Below are positions 36,521 through 57,334 of a DNA stretch of 64,000 nt, in pieces. The DNA comes from Patescibacteria group bacterium. GTDB lineage: Bacteria > Patescibacteriota > Minisyncoccia > Phycocordibacterales > CSBR16-119. The DNA is taken from the NCBI GenBank assembly GCA_030917865.1, contig JAUPTX010000002.1, positions 40 to 64,039 on the forward strand, written 5' to 3'. Below the pieces are notes generated by a model, which was not told the origin of the DNA, did no database searches, and saw only the letters and a program-made list of their open reading frames with translations. The translations under genes were made by a program, and so were the position numbers. Numbering within the stretch: position 1 is the first letter of the stretch; each line of letters starts with the position of its first letter.

Positions 36521-39124
36521 ATGTCAAAAAAGATTTTTAAAAACATACTTTGGAGTATTGTACCTATTGGATTAGGTATTGTTTTGACTGCATTTATCTG
36601 GAACAGCGCCGAACAAGCTATCACAAAAGAAAATGCGCCAAGAGAAAGATCTTCTTTTATAACCAAAATTAAAAATATAAATATTAAAATCGGCGAGAAA
36701 AATATTTCTCAAACTGTTTTTAAATTCGACAACACAATCTACCCACCAACTCCTGTTTACATGATTAAAAACCCAGACAAAGAACTCGACATAGGTGCAG
36801 TTTCTTTTGTTGTTGGAGATGTAAATACTGGAGAAATAATCTTAGAAAAAAACAGCGAAGCTGTATTCCCTATCGCATCGGTAACTAAACTAATGACAGC
36901 GCTAGTGTCACTAGAAACATTACCTCAAGAAGAAAAAACAAAAGTTTCAAATCGTGCGGCAAATATCGAAAGTTCTCGTGGAGACCTACGAACAGGTGAA
37001 AATGTTTTAATATCTGATTTACTCTACCCTCTTCTTTTAGTTTCCAGCAACAACGCGGCTGAAGTTCTAGCAGAAACAAAAGGTCGCCCGAGCTTCATGC
37101 AAAACATGAACGAATTTGCAGACAAAATCGGGATGAGCAAAACAAACTTCGATGACCCGAGTGGACTTTCAAGTAAAAACACCTCCACAGCCAAAGATCT
37201 TTTTAAATTAACAACATATCTTGAAAACAATCACAGACTTGTTTTTGACATCTCTACTCTTACAGAATACACAGCGATAGGCAAAGTCTGGAGAAATATA
37301 AATAGATTTTCAAACAATGACAACTTTATAGGAGGAAAAACAGGTTTTACAAGCCAAGCAAAAAGAACGGGCGTAGGTATTTTCTCTGTCTCTTTTCCAG
37401 AATATGAAGACAGACATATAGGTATAATTCTTCTTAGAACAGACGACAGAACTAAAGACATTTATACAATACTTAATTATCTGAGAGAAAATGTCGCTTA
37501 TGGATACGAAGAAGAAATCAAAAACCAGATAGCTGGAGCAAAAACAACAGACGGAGAAGTTTTAGGAGAATCCGACAGCTTATCTTTTTTAAGATTAAAG
37601 AAAAAAGAAAATGACTCGATAATAAACAGAGTTTCTGTTGTAGAGCCAAACAATTGCCCAAAACCAACAGAAGGGTTTCAAGATCTTTCTTTATTTAATG
37701 CATCTAGAGAAAACAAACTACCAACGAACTACATCCCAAAAGACCTGTCTCCGATTAAAAACATAATAGAGACCAAAGGTCGAGATATTTGCCTTACAGA
37801 AAAAGCAAAAGATGCACTCGCAAAACTAAACGAAAACGCTAAAAACGAAGGATTGGAAATTGTCGCCACTTCTGCCTTTCGAAGCGAAGAAACACAAAAA
37901 TGGATTCACGATGAATGGCACAGAAAAAACCAAGTGATAAACGGTGAAGAAGCTATTGCAAAACCAGGACACTCTGAACACCAACTCGGCACAACAGTCG
38001 ACTTCACTGCGCCGGGCGTCGGATATGATTCAGCGGATAGGAATTTTCACTTAACACCAGAATACGAATGGCTTTTAAACAATGCACACAAATACGGCTT
38101 TGTTTTAAGCTATCCAAATAAAAAACAAACTGGATATATTTTTGAACCTTGGCATTGGCGATATGTCGGAATTGAAAACTCATATCATATAAAACTTGCA
38201 GACATAACAATTCAAGAATTTCTTTCTGGCCAAAAACAAGAGTTTAAACCAGAAGAAAAGCAAGAAGTCACCATCTCATTTTTAGGAGACATAATGATGG
38301 ATCGCGGAGTCAAAACTTCTGTGTATAAAAACTACGGAGGCGACTTTAATTCCCTATTTAAAAATTTAGGAGAACTTAAAGATGATGATATAACTTTCGC
38401 AAACCTTGAAGGCCCTGTTTCTGATGTCGGGAAAAATGTCGGCAGCAAATACTCTTTTCGCATGGAAGAAAAAACTTTAGACGCACTTAAAAATGCTTCT
38501 TTTGAAATAGTATCGTTCGCAAACAACCACGTCGGAGACTGGAGTGTAGCCGCTTTTGACGACACCTTAGGAGGATTAAATAGAGTAGGAATAAAATACA
38601 CTGGCGCAGGTAAAAATCTAGCTGACGCAAGCGAGGTCAGAGTGATAGAAGAAAACGGAGTGAAAGTAGGATTTCTAGCTTTCACAGATGTCGGACCAAA
38701 TTGGATGGCCGCTGGAGAAAATAAGTCAGGGATACTTTTAGCAAGCGACCCAAAAAGACTTGAATATATAAAAACTGCAAAAGAAAAAGTAGATGTGCTT
38801 GTCGTATCGTACCACTGGGGCGAAGAATACGTAGCGTTTAATGCTCGTCAAAAAAGTTTAGCTGAAAGCTCAATCGATGCTGGTGCTGATATCATCGCAG
38901 GTCATCACCCACACGTAAGACAAGATACGCTTACATATAAAGATGGGCTGATTATGTATTCACTTGGAAACGCAATCTTTGATCAATACTTCTCAGAAGA
39001 AACAATGAAAGGAGGACTCGTAAATGTCACTGTCACAAAAGAAGGCATAAAAGATTTTGAAGAAAAAGTTTTTACGCTGGATAAGACTTATGTGCCAGGT
39101 GTTCCGGAAAAAAATAAAAATTAA
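36521..39124 (+). CDS. tri-domain exported cell-wall enzyme: S11 D-Ala-D-Ala carboxypeptidase (SxxK/SxN/KTG) + M15B VanY-like D,D-carboxypeptidase + CapA/PGA_cap-like metallophosphatase domain
   Basis: N-terminal TM helix. ASVTKLM (SxxK), SSNN (SxN), GGKTGFT (KTG). Then SAFRSEETQ...GHSEHQLGTTVDF...EPWHWRYVG (M15B signature). Then GDIMMDRGV, ANLEGP, FANNHVGDW, HWGEEY, GHHPHV (CapA-type). Confidence 0.8.
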   Translation: MSKKIFKNILWSIVPIGLGIVLTAFIWNSAEQAITKENAPRERSSFITKIKNINIKIGEKNISQTVFKFDNTIYPPTPVYMIKNPDKELDIGAVSFVVGDVNTGEIILEKNSEAVFPIASVTKLMTALVSLETLPQEEKTKVSNRAANIESSRGDLRTGENVLISDLLYPLLLVSSNNAAEVLAETKGRPSFMQNMNEFADKIGMSKTNFDDPSGLSSKNTSTAKDLFKLTTYLENNHRLVFDISTLTEYTAIGKVWRNINRFSNNDNFIGGKTGFTSQAKRTGVGIFSVSFPEYEDRHIGIILLRTDDRTKDIYTILNYLRENVAYGYEEEIKNQIAGAKTTDGEVLGESDSLSFLRLKKKENDSIINRVSVVEPNNCPKPTEGFQDLSLFNASRENKLPTNYIPKDLSPIKNIIETKGRDICLTEKAKDALAKLNENAKNEGLEIVATSAFRSEETQKWIHDEWHRKNQVINGEEAIAKPGHSEHQLGTTVDFTAPGVGYDSADRNFHLTPEYEWLLNNAHKYGFVLSYPNKKQTGYIFEPWHWRYVGIENSYHIKLADITIQEFLSGQKQEFKPEEKQEVTISFLGDIMMDRGVKTSVYKNYGGDFNSLFKNLGELKDDDITFANLEGPVSDVGKNVGSKYSFRMEEKTLDALKNASFEIVSFANNHVGDWSVAAFDDTLGGLNRVGIKYTGAGKNLADASEVRVIEENGVKVGFLAFTDVGPNWMAAGENKSGILLASDPKRLEYIKTAKEKVDVLVVSYHWGEEYVAFNARQKSLAESSIDAGADIIAGHHPHVRQDTLTYKDGLIMYSLGNAIFDQYFSEETMKGGLVNVTVTKEGIKDFEEKVFTLDKTYVPGVPEKNKN

Positions 39125-42349: not shown

Positions 42350-43240
42350 TTATTTTGTAATATACTCAACCGATTGTGCTAAAAGTGGCAAGATATCGTC
42401 GTATGTTTTGATATCTTCAAGCTCTGCGAGCGTAAACCACTTTCCGCCATCAAGACCGCCGTTTGTTTTAACGTTCATTTCCACAAATGGCGACTTAACC
42501 AGGTAATAACTTACCTGTTTACGAATTTTACCTTTTTCTGGGTGAGATGCAACATATTCGTTTTCCCCGAGAAGTTTTACAATTTCCGCATCTAAATCTG
42601 TCTTTTCTTTAATCTCTCTGATAGCGCCCTCTTCTGAAGTTTCGCCGTCTTCTACTCCGCCTTTTGCGAGAGTCCAATATCCAAAAACATCGTGGACAAG
42701 ACCGAAATAGAACTGACCGTCTTTTTCAGAAACGATAACACCCCCTGCCTTTTTCTCGACAGGCATGTCTTCTAGTTTAACTTCTTTTACTTTTTTCTTT
42801 CCACTGTCTTCTTTTCCTGGTTCACCCATCTCTTTATACACAGCGCCGAGTACTCCGTTTACGAATTTGCCGGATTTTTCACCACCGAAAGTTTTCGCGA
42901 GTTCGATCGCTTCGTTAATAGCAACTTTTGGAGGAACTTCGTTTTTGTCTGCGAACAAAAGTTCAGCCAAACCAATACGAAGAACATTTCTATCAACCAT
43001 AGAAATTTTCTCAAGAGGCCACTCTGGTGCAGCGCGAGTGATTATTTCATCAATAGATTCTTGTTTATCGAGAACGATTTTTAGCAAGGTCTCCATGAAA
43101 GAGTCCACAGAAAGACCAGGTCCAAATTCAGAAGTGTTATGAAGAAGTTCTTCTGATAGGTCAGAAGACTTGCGACCGTTAAAGTCCCATTCAAAAAGTG
43201 TTTGTAAAACTATAGAACGTGCTAAATGTCTGTTTGCCAT
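42350..43240 (-). CDS. nusB: transcription antitermination factor NusB fused to a C-terminal NUDIX hydrolase domain
   Basis: Residues 1 to about 140 are NusB-like (ARSIVLQTLFEWDF...VDRNVLRIGLAELLF...FVNGVLGAV). A lysine-rich linker follows, then a Nudix fold with the box GGVEDGETSEEGAIREIKEKTDLD. Confidence 0.8.
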   Translation of the reverse strand: MANRHLARSIVLQTLFEWDFNGRKSSDLSEELLHNTSEFGPGLSVDSFMETLLKIVLDKQESIDEIITRAAPEWPLEKISMVDRNVLRIGLAELLFADKNEVPPKVAINEAIELAKTFGGEKSGKFVNGVLGAVYKEMGEPGKEDSGKKKVKEVKLEDMPVEKKAGGVIVSEKDGQFYFGLVHDVFGYWTLAKGGVEDGETSEEGAIREIKEKTDLDAEIVKLLGENEYVASHPEKGKIRKQVSYYLVKSPFVEMNVKTNGGLDGGKWFTLAELEDIKTYDDILPLLAQSVEYITK

Positions 43241-43572: not shown

Positions 43573-45345
43573 TTGAAGGAGGTTTATGCTAATATTATCC
43601 TTATGGAAAACGAAAAACTATCACACAAAAGACACACATTAGCCCACCTTCTGGCTCAGGCGGTTTTAGAGCATTATCCGTCTGCCCTCCCAACACTTGG
43701 CCCAGCAGTAGAAAACGGCTTTTATTACGACTTTGATTTTGGTGCGGAAAAATTAACAGACGAAGACTTAAAGAAGATCCAAAAATCAATGAAGAAAAAC
43801 CTGAACAAATGGACAGAATTTTCTCACCGAGTCGTCTCAGCACAAGAAGCAAAAGATTTCTACAAAAATAATCCCTACAAACTAGAGCTGATAGAAGAAA
43901 TCGCAAACAAAGGTGAAGATATAACTTTCTACTCTTGTGGAGGATTTGAAGATTTGTGCCGAGGTGGACACTCAGAAAACCCATCAAAAGAAATTTCTGG
44001 CGATGCTTTTAAGCTATCTCACATAGCAGGAGCGTACTGGCGAGGAGATGAAAAAAATAAAATGCTAACTCGTATTTATGGTGTGGCTTTTGAAACGGCA
44101 GAAGATTTGAAAAACTACGAAGACTTTTTAGCAGAAGCAAAGAAGCGCGATCACAGAAAAATTGGCGCAGAGCTAGACCTTTTCACTTTCTCTGATTTGG
44201 TTGGACCGGGGCTACCACTTTTCACACCCAAGGGTACTCTTGTCCGAGATTTGGTAATTGAAAAAATAAGTAAAATCCAGAAAAAATTCGGATATCAAAA
44301 AGTTACAATTCCTCACATCACAAAAGCAGATTTGTATAAAACATCTGGTCACTACGAAAAATACGGCGAAGATTTATTTAAAGTAAAAGGCCGAGGCGAG
44401 ACAGAATTCTGTATCAAGCCAATGAACTGCCCTCACCACACACAAATCTATGCCTCACAAATGAGAAGCTATAAAGATTTACCTCTACGATATGTAGAAA
44501 CAACAACAGTTTACCGAGATGAACAAGCTGGTGAGCTGATGGGGCTTTCACGAGTACGAGCAATCTCTCAAGACGATGGACATATTTTCTGTACACCAGA
44601 GCAAGTAGAAGAAGAAATTAAAAATATCATCTACATAATCAAAGAATTCTACAACTCTTTAGGAATGCTACAAGACGGCAGATATTGGGTTTCTCTTTCT
44701 GTACGCGACCCGCAAAACTTGGACAAATACATTGGAGATGAAAATATCTGGAATACAGCAGAAAAGACCCTCGAAGAAATTTGTAAAAACGAAGGTCTAA
44801 ACTACAAACGAGTCGAAGGCGAAGCAGCTTTCTACGGACCAAAGATAGATTTCCAATTCAAAGACGCTATCGGCCGAGAATGGCAACTAGGTACTGCACA
44901 GCTGGACTTCAATATGCCGAAAAGATTTGGACTAGAATACACAGACAAAGACGGACAAAAGAAAACTCCTGTGATGATCCACCGCGCTATCGCAGGGTCG
45001 CTCGAGAGATTTCTCTCTGTTGCCATCGAACACTTTGCTGGTGCCTTCCCTGTTTGGATGTCGCCTGTACAAGTCGCGATAGTACCAGTGAACGCCGAAG
45101 CTCATGGAGACTATGCAAGGCAGGTTTACGAAAAACTTTTAGAAGCTGACGTGCGCGCAGAGCTTTATGCCGAAAACGAATCACTTGGCAAAAGAGTGCG
45201 ACAAATCAAAACTCAAAAAATCCCTTTTACGCTCGTAATCGGTGATAAAGAAAAAGATTCAGACAAACTGACAGCTGAAGGAAGAAACGAGGAGAAACAC
45301 GAAAATTTGAGTATAGAAGAAATAGTAAAATTAATTAAATCATAA
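43573..45345 (+). CDS. thrS: threonyl-tRNA synthetase (short form without an N-terminal TGS domain); its last roughly 500 nt are visibly GC-richer
   Basis: Second-additional-domain motifs HKRHTLAHLLAQAV and CGGFEDLCRGGH, a class II core, and a C-terminal anticodon-binding domain. Confidence 0.9.
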   Translation: MKEVYANIILMENEKLSHKRHTLAHLLAQAVLEHYPSALPTLGPAVENGFYYDFDFGAEKLTDEDLKKIQKSMKKNLNKWTEFSHRVVSAQEAKDFYKNNPYKLELIEEIANKGEDITFYSCGGFEDLCRGGHSENPSKEISGDAFKLSHIAGAYWRGDEKNKMLTRIYGVAFETAEDLKNYEDFLAEAKKRDHRKIGAELDLFTFSDLVGPGLPLFTPKGTLVRDLVIEKISKIQKKFGYQKVTIPHITKADLYKTSGHYEKYGEDLFKVKGRGETEFCIKPMNCPHHTQIYASQMRSYKDLPLRYVETTTVYRDEQAGELMGLSRVRAISQDDGHIFCTPEQVEEEIKNIIYIIKEFYNSLGMLQDGRYWVSLSVRDPQNLDKYIGDENIWNTAEKTLEEICKNEGLNYKRVEGEAAFYGPKIDFQFKDAIGREWQLGTAQLDFNMPKRFGLEYTDKDGQKKTPVMIHRAIAGSLERFLSVAIEHFAGAFPVWMSPVQVAIVPVNAEAHGDYARQVYEKLLEADVRAELYAENESLGKRVRQIKTQKIPFTLVIGDKEKDSDKLTAEGRNEEKHENLSIEEIVKLIKS

Positions 45346-45346
45346 A

Positions 45347-45408
45347 ATATAGGGCGCCTTCGGCGCCCTATATTTTATTTAAAAGCCCTACCAACTGGTA
45401 GGGCTTTT
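45347..45408. terminator. two adjacent GC hairpin terminators (TATAGGGCGCC-TTCG-GGCGCCCTATA + T-run for thrS; AAAAGCCCTACCA-ACTG-GTAGGGCTTTT, bidirectional, for the murD fragment)
   Basis: Seen directly at 45348-45380 and 45381-45408. Confidence 0.7.
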
Positions 45409-45954
45409 GCACGCAAGACGCGCCACAGAACTTCTGAACTCCCGAGATCTATGCTCATAGTTCGTAAAAAGGTCAAAACTTGCACACGCTGGAGAAAGCA
45501 GAACTGTATACCCGGGCTGAGCAAGCTGCATTGCAGACATAACAGCTTCGTCCATTAAAAGACAGTCCGAGGTAACGGGAACGTCTTGAGAGAAAAAATT
45601 CCTCAGACGATCGTTTACCCTGCCCAAGGCAACGATTGCTTTTACCTTCTTTTCGACAGCAGACAGAAGCACCGAATAGTTATTTCCCTTATCGACGCCG
45701 CCAGCAATCCAAATTATTGGACCACCAGTTTCTTCTAGTGCCCACCAAGCAGAATTCACATTGGTTGAAAAAGAATCATCTACAAAACTGATACCTTCGA
45801 ATAGCCCAACTTTTAGCAGACGATAGTCGAGGACCGGACGAAAACCTTCTCGTATTTCGTCTTTAGTTGGAGAAATTCTACCCTCAATACCAACACCCTC
45901 TCTCTTGTGCCCAGCAATGTTTCCGTTTACTGCGATCTCTATTATGTGTCTCAT
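45388..45954 (-). pseudogene. murD: GC-rich gene fragment matching only the C-terminal domain of UDP-N-acetylmuramoylalanine--D-glutamate ligase (MurD); truncated remnant or captured fragment
   Basis: VDDSFSTNVNSAWWALEE...IIWIAGGVDKGNNYSVL...LSPACASFDLFTNYEHRSREF aligns to the MurD C-terminal domain. The ATP-binding and N-terminal domains are absent (188 aa versus about 440). GC is visibly higher than in neighbouring genes. Confidence 0.55.
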
Positions 45955-46031
45955 GGTGCTGTAATTTGCATATATTATACAACGAAAAAGCCTTGTAATA
46001 GCAAGGCTTTTTCAGAACAACATATTTAATT

Positions 46032-48074
46032 TTATATATCAATATCCGCCAACTTTGCGTTTGTTTGTATAAATGCTTTTCTTGGAGGAACTTCACTTCC
46101 CATAAGCATATCAAAGGTTTTATCAGCTTCGATAGCATCTTCGATTTTAACTTGAAGAAGTATTCTATTGTCTTTATCCATCGTAGTTTCTTTAAGTTCG
46201 TCTGGGTTCATTTCTCCGAGACCTTTATATCGTTGAACAGAAAGTTTTGGCTTCTTTGTCTTTACCTCTTCTTCCTCTTCTACTGGAACACCTTCAGTTT
46301 CTCCAGTTTCTTCAAGATCTGTTTCGGAAACACCTTCTTTCTTTAGGAATTCTTTTTTCTCTTCATCAGAGTAAAGATAGATTTTTTCTTTTCCTTTTGT
46401 CACCTTGTAAAGTGGCGGCTGTGCGATATACAGATATCCAGCTTCTACAACAGGTCGGAAATATCTGTAGAACAAAGTCAAAAGCAAAGTTCTAATGTGT
46501 GCACCGTCAACGTCGGCATCTGTCGCGATGATGATTTTGTGATATCTAATGTCTTCGATATTAAATGTATCGCCGATAGAAGTACCGATAGCAATAACCA
46601 AAGATTTAACTTCGTTTGATGCAAGCATTTTGTCGAGTCTCGCTCTTTCTACGTTTAGGATTTTACCTTTGAGAGGTAGCACTGCTTGAGTTCGTCTATC
46701 GCGACCCATTTTTGTCGAACCACCCGCAGAGTCTCCCTCTACGATAAAAAGCTCTGATTCTTCGGCAGATTTTGACTGACAATCAGCAAGCTTTCCAGGT
46801 AGAGTCATCCCCTCCAAAGCACCTTTTCTCAAAACTGAATCTTTGGCAGCTTTCGCAGCTTTTCGCGCCTTAAGAGCAAGTATCGCTTTGTTGATTATTG
46901 ATTTTGCTTCGTCTGGGTTTTCTTCTAGGAAATTTGCAAATGCATCAGAGAAAACAGACTCAACAGCACCTCGTGCTTCTGGACTACCGAGTTTATCTTT
47001 TGTTTGACCTTCGAATTGGATTTCTGGCATTTTCACAGAAACTACAGCAGTGAGTCCTTCTAGCACGTCGTCTCCAGTAAAGCCACCCTCTTTTTCGTTT
47101 AGGATTCCGTTCTTTTTGTTATAGTTGTTTATGAGTCTTGTCAGTGCGGTTTTAAAACCTGTGACGTGCATACCCCCTCCTGGTGTATAGATATTGTTCG
47201 CAAAAGGAACAATACGAGAAGAAATATCGTCTACATATTGAAGTGCGATTTCAACTGTTATGTCGTCAACTTCTTTTTCAACATAGAAAATTTTATCGTT
47301 AACAGATTTTAGATCTTGGTTGTAGTGAGCAACCATAGAAACAATACCTCCTTCGAAATAAAAAGACATCGAAGGTATTTCAAGACCCAAATCTTTTACA
47401 AAGAAAGTGTCGTCTTCGTTTATCTTTTCTTCGTAGTCCCTAGCATCGTTTATAGTTATACGAAGTTTACGAACTAGGTAAGCCTGCTCTCTGTAGTGGT
47501 TAACAATTCTTTTCCAATCAAATTTAATTTCTTTGAAAATCTCAACGTCTGATTGAAACTTTACGATTGTTCCATTTTCTTTTGAAGATCCGATTTTCTT
47601 AACTTTATATTGAGGTTTACCGATTTTATATTCTTGAACATGCAAGCCACCTTCTCTGTGAACCGTTACTTTCATATGAGTCGAAAGAGCGTTCACCACA
47701 GAAGCACCCACACCGTGAAGACCTCCGGAAACTTTATAACCCTTGTCTTTTCCACCGAATTTACCTCCGGCGTGAAGAACCGTCATGATAGTTTCTAATG
47801 CAGAAACTTTTGTTTTTGAGTGAATACCAACTGGGATACCTCGCCCGTTGTCGGCAACACGCACGTAGTCGTTTGGCAAAAGAGTTATTTCGATATGATC
47901 ACAGTGACCCGCCATCGCTTCGTCGCGAGAGTTATCGAAAATTTCTTTTATAAGGTGATGAAGTCCGTCTGGTCCAGTTGAACCGATGTACATACCAGGA
48001 CGTTTTCTAACAGGCTCTAACCCCTCGAGAACTGAAATGTCATCTGCACTATAGTTACTTGTATCTTTTGCCAT
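46032..48074 (-). CDS. gyrB: DNA gyrase subunit B (type IIA topoisomerase ATPase subunit; ParE cannot be formally excluded)
   Basis: GHKL ATPase N-terminus (LEGLEPVRKRPGMYIGSTG...HHLIKEIFDNSRDEAMAG), a TOPRIM domain and the C-terminal end. Confidence 0.85.
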   Translation of the reverse strand: MAKDTSNYSADDISVLEGLEPVRKRPGMYIGSTGPDGLHHLIKEIFDNSRDEAMAGHCDHIEITLLPNDYVRVADNGRGIPVGIHSKTKVSALETIMTVLHAGGKFGGKDKGYKVSGGLHGVGASVVNALSTHMKVTVHREGGLHVQEYKIGKPQYKVKKIGSSKENGTIVKFQSDVEIFKEIKFDWKRIVNHYREQAYLVRKLRITINDARDYEEKINEDDTFFVKDLGLEIPSMSFYFEGGIVSMVAHYNQDLKSVNDKIFYVEKEVDDITVEIALQYVDDISSRIVPFANNIYTPGGGMHVTGFKTALTRLINNYNKKNGILNEKEGGFTGDDVLEGLTAVVSVKMPEIQFEGQTKDKLGSPEARGAVESVFSDAFANFLEENPDEAKSIINKAILALKARKAAKAAKDSVLRKGALEGMTLPGKLADCQSKSAEESELFIVEGDSAGGSTKMGRDRRTQAVLPLKGKILNVERARLDKMLASNEVKSLVIAIGTSIGDTFNIEDIRYHKIIIATDADVDGAHIRTLLLTLFYRYFRPVVEAGYLYIAQPPLYKVTKGKEKIYLYSDEEKKEFLKKEGVSETDLEETGETEGVPVEEEEEVKTKKPKLSVQRYKGLGEMNPDELKETTMDKDNRILLQVKIEDAIEADKTFDMLMGSEVPPRKAFIQTNAKLADIDI

Positions 48075-48224: not shown

Positions 48225-48731
48225 ATGAAAAAACTGATCCTTCTCGCCATCTTTTTCCTGGGCATGATCGCCCAAGAAACATTCGGCCAAACCCGATACG
48301 GATGGGCAAACCCCATACCTGACAGTATGACGTGGAACTTGGACCAGTCGGTCAAAGAGGACTTTATCCTCTCCCCTCCAAGCGGCCAAGGTGACATACC
48401 CTTAGAATCGAGTATCTGGCAGAAACCAGAGAAAGACAAGATGACCGTAAAGATCGTGGCTGTAAGGCCCGCCGATCTCGGATTCGGACTTGGTTACGAC
48501 CACTCCGAATTCATCCTGGCCGCCAAAAAGCTCGGATACCTGCATTGCCCCGAATGGGTCCCAATCCAGGCGTACATGAGCTTTGGAAGGAGCAAGGGTC
48601 ACATCTTCTTCTACACAGGAGAAGCGAAGAAGTACTGGTGCTTTGGCCTATACGGCTACAAAAGCCAAGACCTTTGGAAAAGGACCCTGGACGGCAGACC
48701 TGATTCCATATGGATATTCGTACGAGAGTAA
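48225..48731 (+). CDS. hypothetical secreted protein (168 aa, N-terminal signal peptide), GC-rich cassette
   Basis: MKKLILLAIFFLGMIAQETFGQ signal peptide. The body is rich in aromatic residues and glycine. GC is roughly 50% by eye. A chance ORF of this length at that GC is improbable. Confidence 0.55.
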   Translation: MKKLILLAIFFLGMIAQETFGQTRYGWANPIPDSMTWNLDQSVKEDFILSPPSGQGDIPLESSIWQKPEKDKMTVKIVAVRPADLGFGLGYDHSEFILAAKKLGYLHCPEWVPIQAYMSFGRSKGHIFFYTGEAKKYWCFGLYGYKSQDLWKRTLDGRPDSIWIFVRE

Positions 48732-56419: not shown

Positions 56420-56887
56420 ATGAGAACAATTGAAACACAAGTGCCAAACTGGCAAGGAGTACCAGCTGTTGGAATGGGGAAACTCATCTTCAACGATGTC
56501 ACGTACATATACTGTGTACTAGATACACGATTGTTAATGAAGCTCGCCACCATCTGCAAAGACGGCATACTGGCGGTAAGTATGGACTACCCAGGCGAAT
56601 ATCGCGAGCTAGCACTGATTCACGAACTCATTGAGTTCTCATCTTGGCAAGAAAAAGACCGAAAAAGAGTCTGCTCCTGCCAAAGTGCACTTCAACAAGA
56701 ATTAAGTATGGCCCAAAATCGTGGAATCGATATGGGTGAATACATAAAGCTTAGGCTTGAATTCTTTGAGGGTGTTGTGAGTTATTACGAAGGAAGGACA
56801 GGTAGCGGAGAAGCCACGGAAGAGGAGTGGGAGATCTTTGAGCACGTTGCACAAAGCCGAGACCATCTGAAAAGCCTGGTCCAATAA
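56420..56887 (+). CDS. hypothetical protein (155 aa), GC-rich cassette
   Basis: Complete ORF followed by a perfect terminator. No recognised family. GC roughly 47% by eye. Confidence 0.5.
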   Translation: MRTIETQVPNWQGVPAVGMGKLIFNDVTYIYCVLDTRLLMKLATICKDGILAVSMDYPGEYRELALIHELIEFSSWQEKDRKRVCSCQSALQQELSMAQNRGIDMGEYIKLRLEFFEGVVSYYEGRTGSGEATEEEWEIFEHVAQSRDHLKSLVQ

Positions 56888-56983: not shown

Positions 56984-57334
56984 ATGTTCCACAAACTTCA
57001 CCTCATACACCCAGGAGAACTTCATGGTGAAAACCACGCAGGAAATTATCATTACAACTTCTTCGCACAGAACAGAGATCAAATACCGAAAGGTATAGTT
57101 ATAGACCGCGTATTCCCCGGATTAAGCCTTATCTTTTTTGGAGATCGCGTGGAGAGAAACGGCAACATCTACGCCCCTGGACTTTATCGCGCCAAAGGAC
57201 TTATCTACTGTTCCTTCGCTGACCCAAGCGGATGGGAGGAATATTGGGTCTGTCTAGATGAAGAAGGAGCACCCGTGGTGAAGTACGGAGGACAGGATCT
57301 TTCCATGTACTACCGATACGTGGTGAAGAAGTGA
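56984..57334 (+). CDS. hypothetical protein (116 aa), GC-rich cassette
   Basis: Complete ORF (MFHKLHLIHPGELHGENHAGNYHYNFF...) with its own terminator. Rich in Tyr, Gly and His. No family recognised. Confidence 0.45.
   Translation: MFHKLHLIHPGELHGENHAGNYHYNFFAQNRDQIPKGIVIDRVFPGLSLIFFGDRVERNGNIYAPGLYRAKGLIYCSFADPSGWEEYWVCLDEEGAPVVKYGGQDLSMYYRYVVKK

Follow-up and report, generated by a model that had tools for sequence, protein, structure and literature searches.

A short murD gene of Patescibacteria that encodes a stand-alone MurD C-terminal domain

The described protein that comes closest to the subject of this report is the MurD ligase of Bacteroidota. That subject is a short murD gene, with its product P0001, in a 64,000-nucleotide stretch of DNA (hereafter the window) from a Patescibacteria group bacterium (GenBank assembly GCA_030917865.1, contig JAUPTX010000002.1, positions 40 to 64,039 of the forward strand). 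MurD is built on a three-domain plan, with an N-terminal domain that binds UDP-N-acetylmuramoyl-L-alanine (UMA), a central P-loop ATPase domain and a Rossmann-like C-terminal domain that binds D-glutamate (D-Glu). ATP is contacted by Asn268 and Asn271 (in the HNxxN motif), Arg302, Asp317 and Lys319, and the D-Glu pocket is formed by Thr321, Lys348, Ser415, Leu416 and Phe422 (PMC9780078). A Mur-ligase homologue need not keep this plan in full: MurT, in the GatD/MurT lipid II amidotransferase, is without part of it and works through a partner protein. Nor need it be an enzyme, since the MurE-like subunit of the plastid-encoded RNA polymerase has a non-enzymatic role, which is a precedent for the Mur-ligase fold in a structural or binding capacity.

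Set beside these systems, P0001 is recognisable and yet different. With Bacteroidota MurD it has in common clear homology (45-54% identity), most of the D-Glu pocket residues, the fold (root-mean-square deviation, rmsd, of 1.6-2.3 Å to solved MurDs) and the signatures NVNSxW, IWIAGGxDKGNDY and LLSPACASFDLFxNY. Unlike MurD, it is without the N-terminal and central domains; HNxxN, the EHR His and Lys319 have been replaced; and the protein ends in an extra tail, ACKSPTxW, which a hairpin encodes. Its gene has a promoter of its own and is not part of the dcw (division and cell wall) cluster. MurT (PDB 6h5e and 6gs2) resembles it weakly in structure (Foldseek E=1.5e-4) but differs in keeping the ATPase central domain and in being catalytic; identity is 13% and no partner gene adjoins the short gene. 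The MurE-like subunit (PDB 8r6s chain Q) is likewise a weak fold match, but it is full-length and eukaryotic, belongs to an unrelated complex and shows no specific relationship in sequence. P0001 is a Mur-ligase derivative, domesticated and reduced to a single domain, which public annotation misnames MurD.

The short gene is genuine, with upstream and downstream signals of its own, and what it encodes is a MurD C-terminal domain by itself. It occupies positions 45388..45954 on the minus strand, starts with ATG and encodes 188 residues identical to NCBI MDQ5901393.1, where the public annotation is MurD ligase. The initial annotation of this DNA had read it as the C-terminal part of a MurD with the N-terminal and catalytic domains missing, and profiles and structures bear this out. 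NCBIfam TIGR01087 (murD) aligns only through model positions 304-439 of 441 (E=7e-39), with 134.1 bits against a curated cutoff of 211.95 bits, and solved MurD chains in the PDB cover the protein solely with their residues ~307-448. Pfam Mur_ligase_C (PF02875) scores 26 bits, just under the gathering score of 28.4; the predicted fold nonetheless matches (Foldseek probability 1.00). The AlphaFold2 model has a predicted local distance difference test score (pLDDT) of 81.5, mostly above 90 for residues 45-180 and below 50 for residues 1-26, and superposes on MurD C-terminal domains with an rmsd of 1.6-1.8 Å over 142 columns. Codons 41-180 (45415..45834, minus strand) correspond to the D-Glu-binding, Rossmann-like domain, and codons 1-40 (45835..45954, minus strand) are, from alignments and the residue audit described below, what is left in degenerate form of the central domain's last helices, in which the HNxxN adenine-binding motif is replaced and constraint is weak. 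The UMA-binding and P-loop ATPase domains are absent, and there is no space for them because gyrB ends at 46032, 78 nucleotides upstream; by tblastn, the 64-kb window holds no MurD-like sequence besides the short gene. P0001 matches neither a known defence protein model of PADLOC nor a PHROG model, and a fold comparison with BFVD gave one weak viral match only.

The residues that remain were audited in six members of the short family against 65 Bacteroidota MurDs. Those on the ATP side are lost in part: 6/6 members have something else in place of HNxxN (His267/Asn268/Asn271 equivalents), the His of EHR is Tyr in all, and the equivalent of Lys319, invariant in the 65 MurDs, is Phe, His or Arg in 5/6 and Tyr in a seventh member (P0245), with the Arg302 and Asp317 equivalents retained. 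The D-Glu side is largely retained: the Lys348 and Ser415 equivalents are invariant, and Phe and Tyr stand at the positions of Leu416 and Phe422, as they do in Bacteroidota. P0001 by itself is excluded as a ligase, and ligase activity in trans would be unlikely, since it has neither a UMA-binding nor an ATPase domain and has replaced ATP-contact residues that it could have contributed.

The short gene was compared with the orthologous loci of four related lineages (L001, L002, L005 and L007). Orthologues of the same length are 82, 62, 60, 56 and 54% identical to P0001 (57% for the seventh member, P0245), and the frames are intact, at 181-191 residues, in seven lineages. The order gyrB-(169 aa)-murDC-(62 aa)-thrS-L32-NusB/Nudix-RNase III, where murDC is the short gene and the brackets mark small genes by the length of their products, is shared by L001-L009 and L094. 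Against L001 there are 38 nonsynonymous and 67 synonymous differences (dN/dS 0.109; Fisher p=5e-24), and against more distant relatives dN/dS is 0.14-0.20, which gives an overall range of 0.11-0.20 (p<1e-17). Constraint falls on the domain (0.09-0.11) more than on the first 40 codons (0.19-0.42); thrS (0.054), gyrB (0.032) and pheT (0.137) provide a scale. Purifying selection has thus maintained the short gene in a narrow clade of Patescibacteria. The initial annotation had called it a murD remnant, a view that has to be given up for a conserved, syntenic gene under purifying selection, the very outcome that the annotation had itself set against its proposal. None of the marks of a pseudogene is seen: dN/dS is far below 1, the frames are intact, and the -10 box and hairpins are conserved.

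These signals frame the gene closely. The TATAAT upstream of it had been noticed before and is indeed there, at 45974-45979 on the minus strand, 19 nucleotides before the ATG and directly after the terminator hairpin of gyrB (AAAAAGCCTTG-loop-CAAGGCTTTTT, 45985..46012, minus strand). Box and leader (~19 nucleotides, in which no Shine-Dalgarno sequence is evident) are kept in all five loci, that is, the window, L001, L002, L005 and L007, between which the stems of the post-gyrB hairpin differ by compensatory changes. At the other end, a perfect 12-bp hairpin (AAAAGCCCTACC-loop-GGTAGGGCTTTT, 45381..45408, minus strand), the terminator of the short gene, takes in its final six codons together with the TAG stop. 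It encodes the family-specific tail CKSPTxW and is kept with compensatory changes in L001, L002 and L005: both arms are altered between the window (AAAAGCCCTACC/GGTAGGGCTTTT) and L001 (AAGAGTCCTACC/GGTAGGACTCTT), and the 5' arm still codes K-S-P-T. Since the conserved 3' hairpin of the gene keeps an arm that codes K-S-P-T, the tail ACKSPTxW is a translated terminator stem. Next to it, a perfect 17-bp hairpin with A/T runs on both sides (45342..45378) is the terminator of thrS, usable from either strand. Where an earlier description had a single perfect bidirectional terminator, the hairpins are two and adjacent. Together they fill the 42-nucleotide gap between the short gene and thrS, with a combined fold of -46.6 kcal/mol (z=-10.4). 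Promoter and hairpin were not found as a repeated cassette within the window.

Small genes flank murDC in other lineages. A 62-aa open reading frame (ORF; MTNNNLHNLMSQMTTEQKSLWRIENHYIEEAG...) lies between the short gene and thrS, more than 90% conserved, in every relative (L001 6885-7073; L002 6578-6766; L005 3975-4163; L007 651-839; L094 1153-1341); it is absent from the window, where just the 42 nucleotides with the two hairpins are left. A 169-aa AT-rich gene, also absent from the window, lies between gyrB and the short gene in some lineages (L002 5362-5871; L005 2787-3296). Even there, the post-gyrB hairpin stays just upstream of the -10 box, and the hairpin and TATAAT remain joined as a unit to the short murD gene.

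Where did the gene come from? The short family is monophyletic (99-100% bootstrap) and well set apart in profile searches, with 286 bits for its weakest member and 213 bits for the next match. Its nearest full-length proteins, by word-indexed search, exhaustive HMMER search and pattern scan alike, are Bacteroidota MurDs (~150 bits, at the 45-54% identity given above), against 42-76 bits for the MurDs of other phyla in the PDB. In the pattern scan, which took one genome per species, 79 of the best 80 listed loci are from Bacteroidota, and in the exhaustive HMMER search of 1.84 billion representatives the named top matches are Bacteroidota, Cytophagaceae and Bacteroidia, with Bacteroidales also among the closest relatives. 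One relative found by HMMER (L177) lies in a typical dcw cluster, as the Bacteroidota homologues do. Scans of genome contigs and metagenome contigs returned, among the matches listed, only Bacteroidota-type MurDs (at most 54% identity) and no further family member. Two contigs of more distant Patescibacteria (L095 and L096) still carry RNase III, NusB-Nudix, L32 and thrS, but downstream of thrS the short gene is absent. Because they carry other genes there, the short gene was presumably gained in the ancestor of the narrow clade. The initial proposal of lateral acquisition is therefore upheld for the murD piece, which is foreign by its Bacteroidota affinity and its absence from L095 and L096, but neither for thrS nor as a recent transfer. 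Taken together, these comparisons indicate what would be an old acquisition followed by domestication, not a recent island. In a published survey, Bacteroidota are relatively frequent gene donors to Patescibacteria as well as partners that co-occur with them, and a Bacteroidota-to-Paceibacteria transfer of gyrB is described (PMC12455944). The short gene would add to this a dated and clean example of a transfer in the same direction that ended in domestication. A literature search on stand-alone Mur-ligase C-terminal domains, murD transfer in the candidate phyla radiation and phage MurD found nothing relevant.

Database matches to this domain call for some caution. Bacteroidota murD in public assemblies is often split by a frameshift or a nonsense codon (L011, L092, which is CP121331.1, and L093), and such split genes, re-called from a conserved internal Met, have given rise to dozens of spurious 182-aa 'MurD' proteins. 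The many matches of exactly this length had looked like a wider stand-alone 'MurD-C' family, a candidate that was rejected, as they are split Bacteroidota murD genes in dcw clusters.

The reading that we favour, with confidence only a little better than even, is that a Bacteroidota-type murD was acquired by the ancestor of the clade and has been retained as a non-catalytic binding module in peptidoglycan-precursor metabolism. The organism makes peptidoglycan: Ddl, MreB, MreC and a DD-carboxypeptidase/VanY fusion are encoded in the window. On this reading, the ancestor would have acquired the gene whole or already truncated, and only the part from a conserved internal Met onward would have survived as a gene. 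Its product may well keep the fold, together with most of the site that in MurD accommodates the carboxylates of D-Glu. Its ligand would be D-Glu or a molecule that bears D-Glu, or else it would dock onto a partner in the Mur pathway, and in this way modulate rather than catalyse. The identity and evolutionary history of the short gene are well supported, and its mode of action is inferred. Several observations pull the other way. The neighbours of P0001 evolve 3-6 times more slowly than it does (dN 0.016-0.027 vs 0.094), and the D-Glu pocket is incompletely conserved, with Arg at the Thr321 position in 2/6 members and Ala at that of Ser411 in 4/6. A full-length murD of the genome's own was not found in the 64-kb window, which leaves room for a split enzyme, and the proposed Bacteroidota origin draws on ranked database matches, not on a rooted tree with Patescibacteria MurD. 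For practical purposes, recognising P0001 as non-catalytic avoids a false murD call in metabolic reconstructions of reduced genomes.

Such a split enzyme is the alternative that fares best, although we regard it as unlikely. The clade's own murD would be without its C-terminal domain, and the short gene would supply the domain in trans to give an active ligase. An organism with Ddl, MreB, MreC and a DD-carboxypeptidase needs MurD activity and has no murD in the window, the equivalents of Arg302, Asp317, Lys348 and Ser415 are invariant, and purifying selection on the short gene is strong, all of which would fit. What speaks against it is that an active ligase would hardly be expected to have replaced Lys319 in 5/6 members, to carry Arg for Thr321 in 2/6 and to have exchanged the EHR His for Tyr in all, nor to evolve far faster than essential neighbours; moreover, the short gene sits between gyrB and thrS in all lineages and not in a dcw (mraY-murD-ftsW) context.

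A further possibility comes from mobile elements, on which MurD has been cut down to the same domain. C-domain-only murD ORFs lie on three IMG/VR contigs of 40-103 kb (L178 5869-6456; L179 5950-6462; L180 3035-3535), within replication, early or auxiliary-gene modules and in the company of an exonuclease, a helicase, a DnaD-like loader, a DNA polymerase exonuclease subunit or phage NAD-salvage genes. Another (L010 2190-2735, product P0033) lies on a plasmid-like contig of 4.4 kb, which also bears PHROG matches and a RepL-like gene. Like P0001, these copies and a further one (P0318) are Bacteroidota-type MurDs trimmed to the C-terminal domain, several with Lys319 changed to Arg, and within phage replication modules they begin at start codons of their own. 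The N-termini are unlike those of the P0001 family, L178 and P0318 having one that resembles a Zn ribbon. Because each is nearest a different cellular Bacteroidota MurD and support for pairing any of them with the Patescibacteria family is low (bootstrap at most 24%), they are independent truncations. A mobile-element copy, whether P0033 or phage-borne, was accordingly rejected as the direct source of the family (bootstrap 11-24%, 62% in a smaller tree). Such copies are uncommon, with 3-4 among 2.9 million viral contigs. Scans of IMG/VR with the family profile and with P0033 gave no match, and only a broader alignment (A1) yielded four loci. Matches in the GenBank 'phages' collection were not accepted as phage copies, since they are mostly host DNA in mislabelled records.

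The mobile copies may be functional modules or neutral captures of host fragments, and with the short gene they suggest that the MurD C-terminal domain could have a function of its own. One could then imagine that the isolated domain is a recurrent cell-wall interference module, captured independently by Bacteroidota phages and plasmid-like elements and domesticated by an episymbiotic Patescibacteria clade. By mimicking part of Bacteroidota MurD, it would disturb peptidoglycan-precursor synthesis in a Bacteroidota partner, as a dominant negative or by sequestering a ligand (it might, for instance, keep the MurD domains from closing, or tie up D-Glu or UDP-N-acetylmuramoyl-L-alanyl-D-glutamate, UMAG). 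The attraction of this idea, which we nevertheless hold to be quite improbable, is that phages and an episymbiotic Patescibacterium would both target the same kind of host; independent copies do exist on three phage contigs and on the contig with the RepL-like gene, and Bacteroidota are reported as frequent donors to, and companions of, Patescibacteria (PMC12455944). If it were true, the short gene would be a pointer to the clade's host. But so few copies are compatible with neutral capture, P0001 has neither a signal peptide nor a delivery domain, and it is strongly diverged from any Bacteroidota MurD (distance 0.72).

The initial annotation had proposed a remnant of an acquired murD together with a recombined 3' end of thrS, on the strength of a GC-rich patch. 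The patch exists. In a low-GC genome (0.366 over the window), 44800-45954 has a GC content of 0.444, which exceeds chance (z=2.5, 99.6th percentile of 1155-bp windows), and the stack of spurious ORFs reported over 44400-45200 can be seen at 44414-45184; for the murD ORF, however, the GC content is 0.455 and not about 47%. It is the reading of the patch as a mosaic with a remnant that fails. GC peaks above 0.45 also mark the conserved cores of the native tgt, rpoB, smc and gyrB genes, and the short gene has a GC content of 0.42-0.48 in every orthologue, against 0.35-0.40 in neighbouring genes. Its GC content at first and second codon positions (GC12) is 0.487, the maximum in the window. From amino-acid composition alone a GC content of 0.413 would be expected, so that about half of the excess is accounted for; the rest is raised GC at third positions (GC3), again in all orthologues. 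Synonymous sites are saturated between lineages (dS of at least 2), yet the excess persists, and because of this saturation it cannot be the unameliorated signature of a donor. A recent island is hard to reconcile with this persistence, with a short gene common to the whole clade or with the thrS results given below, and no integrase, transposase or repeat was found at the borders of the short gene. GC-rich patches in this AT-rich genome are, then, poor evidence for recent transfer.

As for thrS (43573..45345, plus strand; TIGR00418, 668 bits), it is native and outside any transferred segment. Its GC-rich 3' part (44800..45200, plus strand; GC content 0.48) encodes the end of the class II catalytic core and the start of the anticodon-binding domain, and the same peak appears in all five sequences (0.42-0.53) at the most conserved part of the protein (90-100% identity in the codon alignment); such a composition is normal for a strongly conserved core when the genome is AT-rich. 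The N-terminal, middle and C-terminal thirds rank the relatives alike (93/99/94% for L001, 89/96/91% for L005, 79-89% for L002 and L007, and 58-69% for the more distant L095 and L096). When the C-terminal 181 residues alone were searched against the database, the named matches were Patescibacteria (Nomurabacteria, Moranbacteria and Paceibacterota). The gene is not mosaic, and the comparison shows neither a breakpoint nor discordance between the parts of thrS. GC excess, truncated architecture and Bacteroidota affinity are what a decaying remnant next to a recombined thrS would have in its favour. Set against seven lineages with an intact ORF of the same length, a dN/dS of 0.11-0.2 (p<1e-17), conserved hairpins and congruent thrS thirds with Patescibacteria affinity, it becomes very improbable. 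Least credible of all is that the reading frame is incidental to a structured non-coding RNA or DNA element: both hairpins do show compensatory changes, the C-terminal tail is encoded by a hairpin arm and GC3 is raised in all orthologues, but over 140 codons nonsynonymous change is about 9-fold below synonymous change, conservation tracks the MurD fold and no Rfam family matches in the region of the short gene.

A few other features of the window deserve mention. On one side of the locus, gyrB (46032..48074, minus strand) is the conserved upstream neighbour, on the same strand as the short gene; on the other, an unusual 296-aa NusB+NUDIX fusion (42350-43240, minus strand) is conserved not only within the clade but also in more distant relatives. 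The DD-carboxypeptidase/VanY fusion mentioned above, likewise unusual, is an 867-aa protein (36521-39124, plus strand) that combines S11 DD-carboxypeptidase, VanY and PGA_cap domains. High GC3 is also found beyond gyrB, at 48225-48731 (plus strand), in a gene whose 168-aa product carries a signal peptide and matches nothing in Pfam or PADLOC (GC3 0.64 vs a window mean of 0.30). Its homologues beside gyrB in L001, L002 and L005 have a GC3 of 0.49-0.63 and diverge fast, with 29-58% identity where gyrB has 90-97%. Finally, two GC-rich ORFs at 56420-56887 and 56984-57334 (plus strand; GC content 0.46-0.47, GC3 0.46-0.49), with no Pfam or PADLOC match, are probably the 'small-ORF cassettes' to which the initial annotation had likened the patch.

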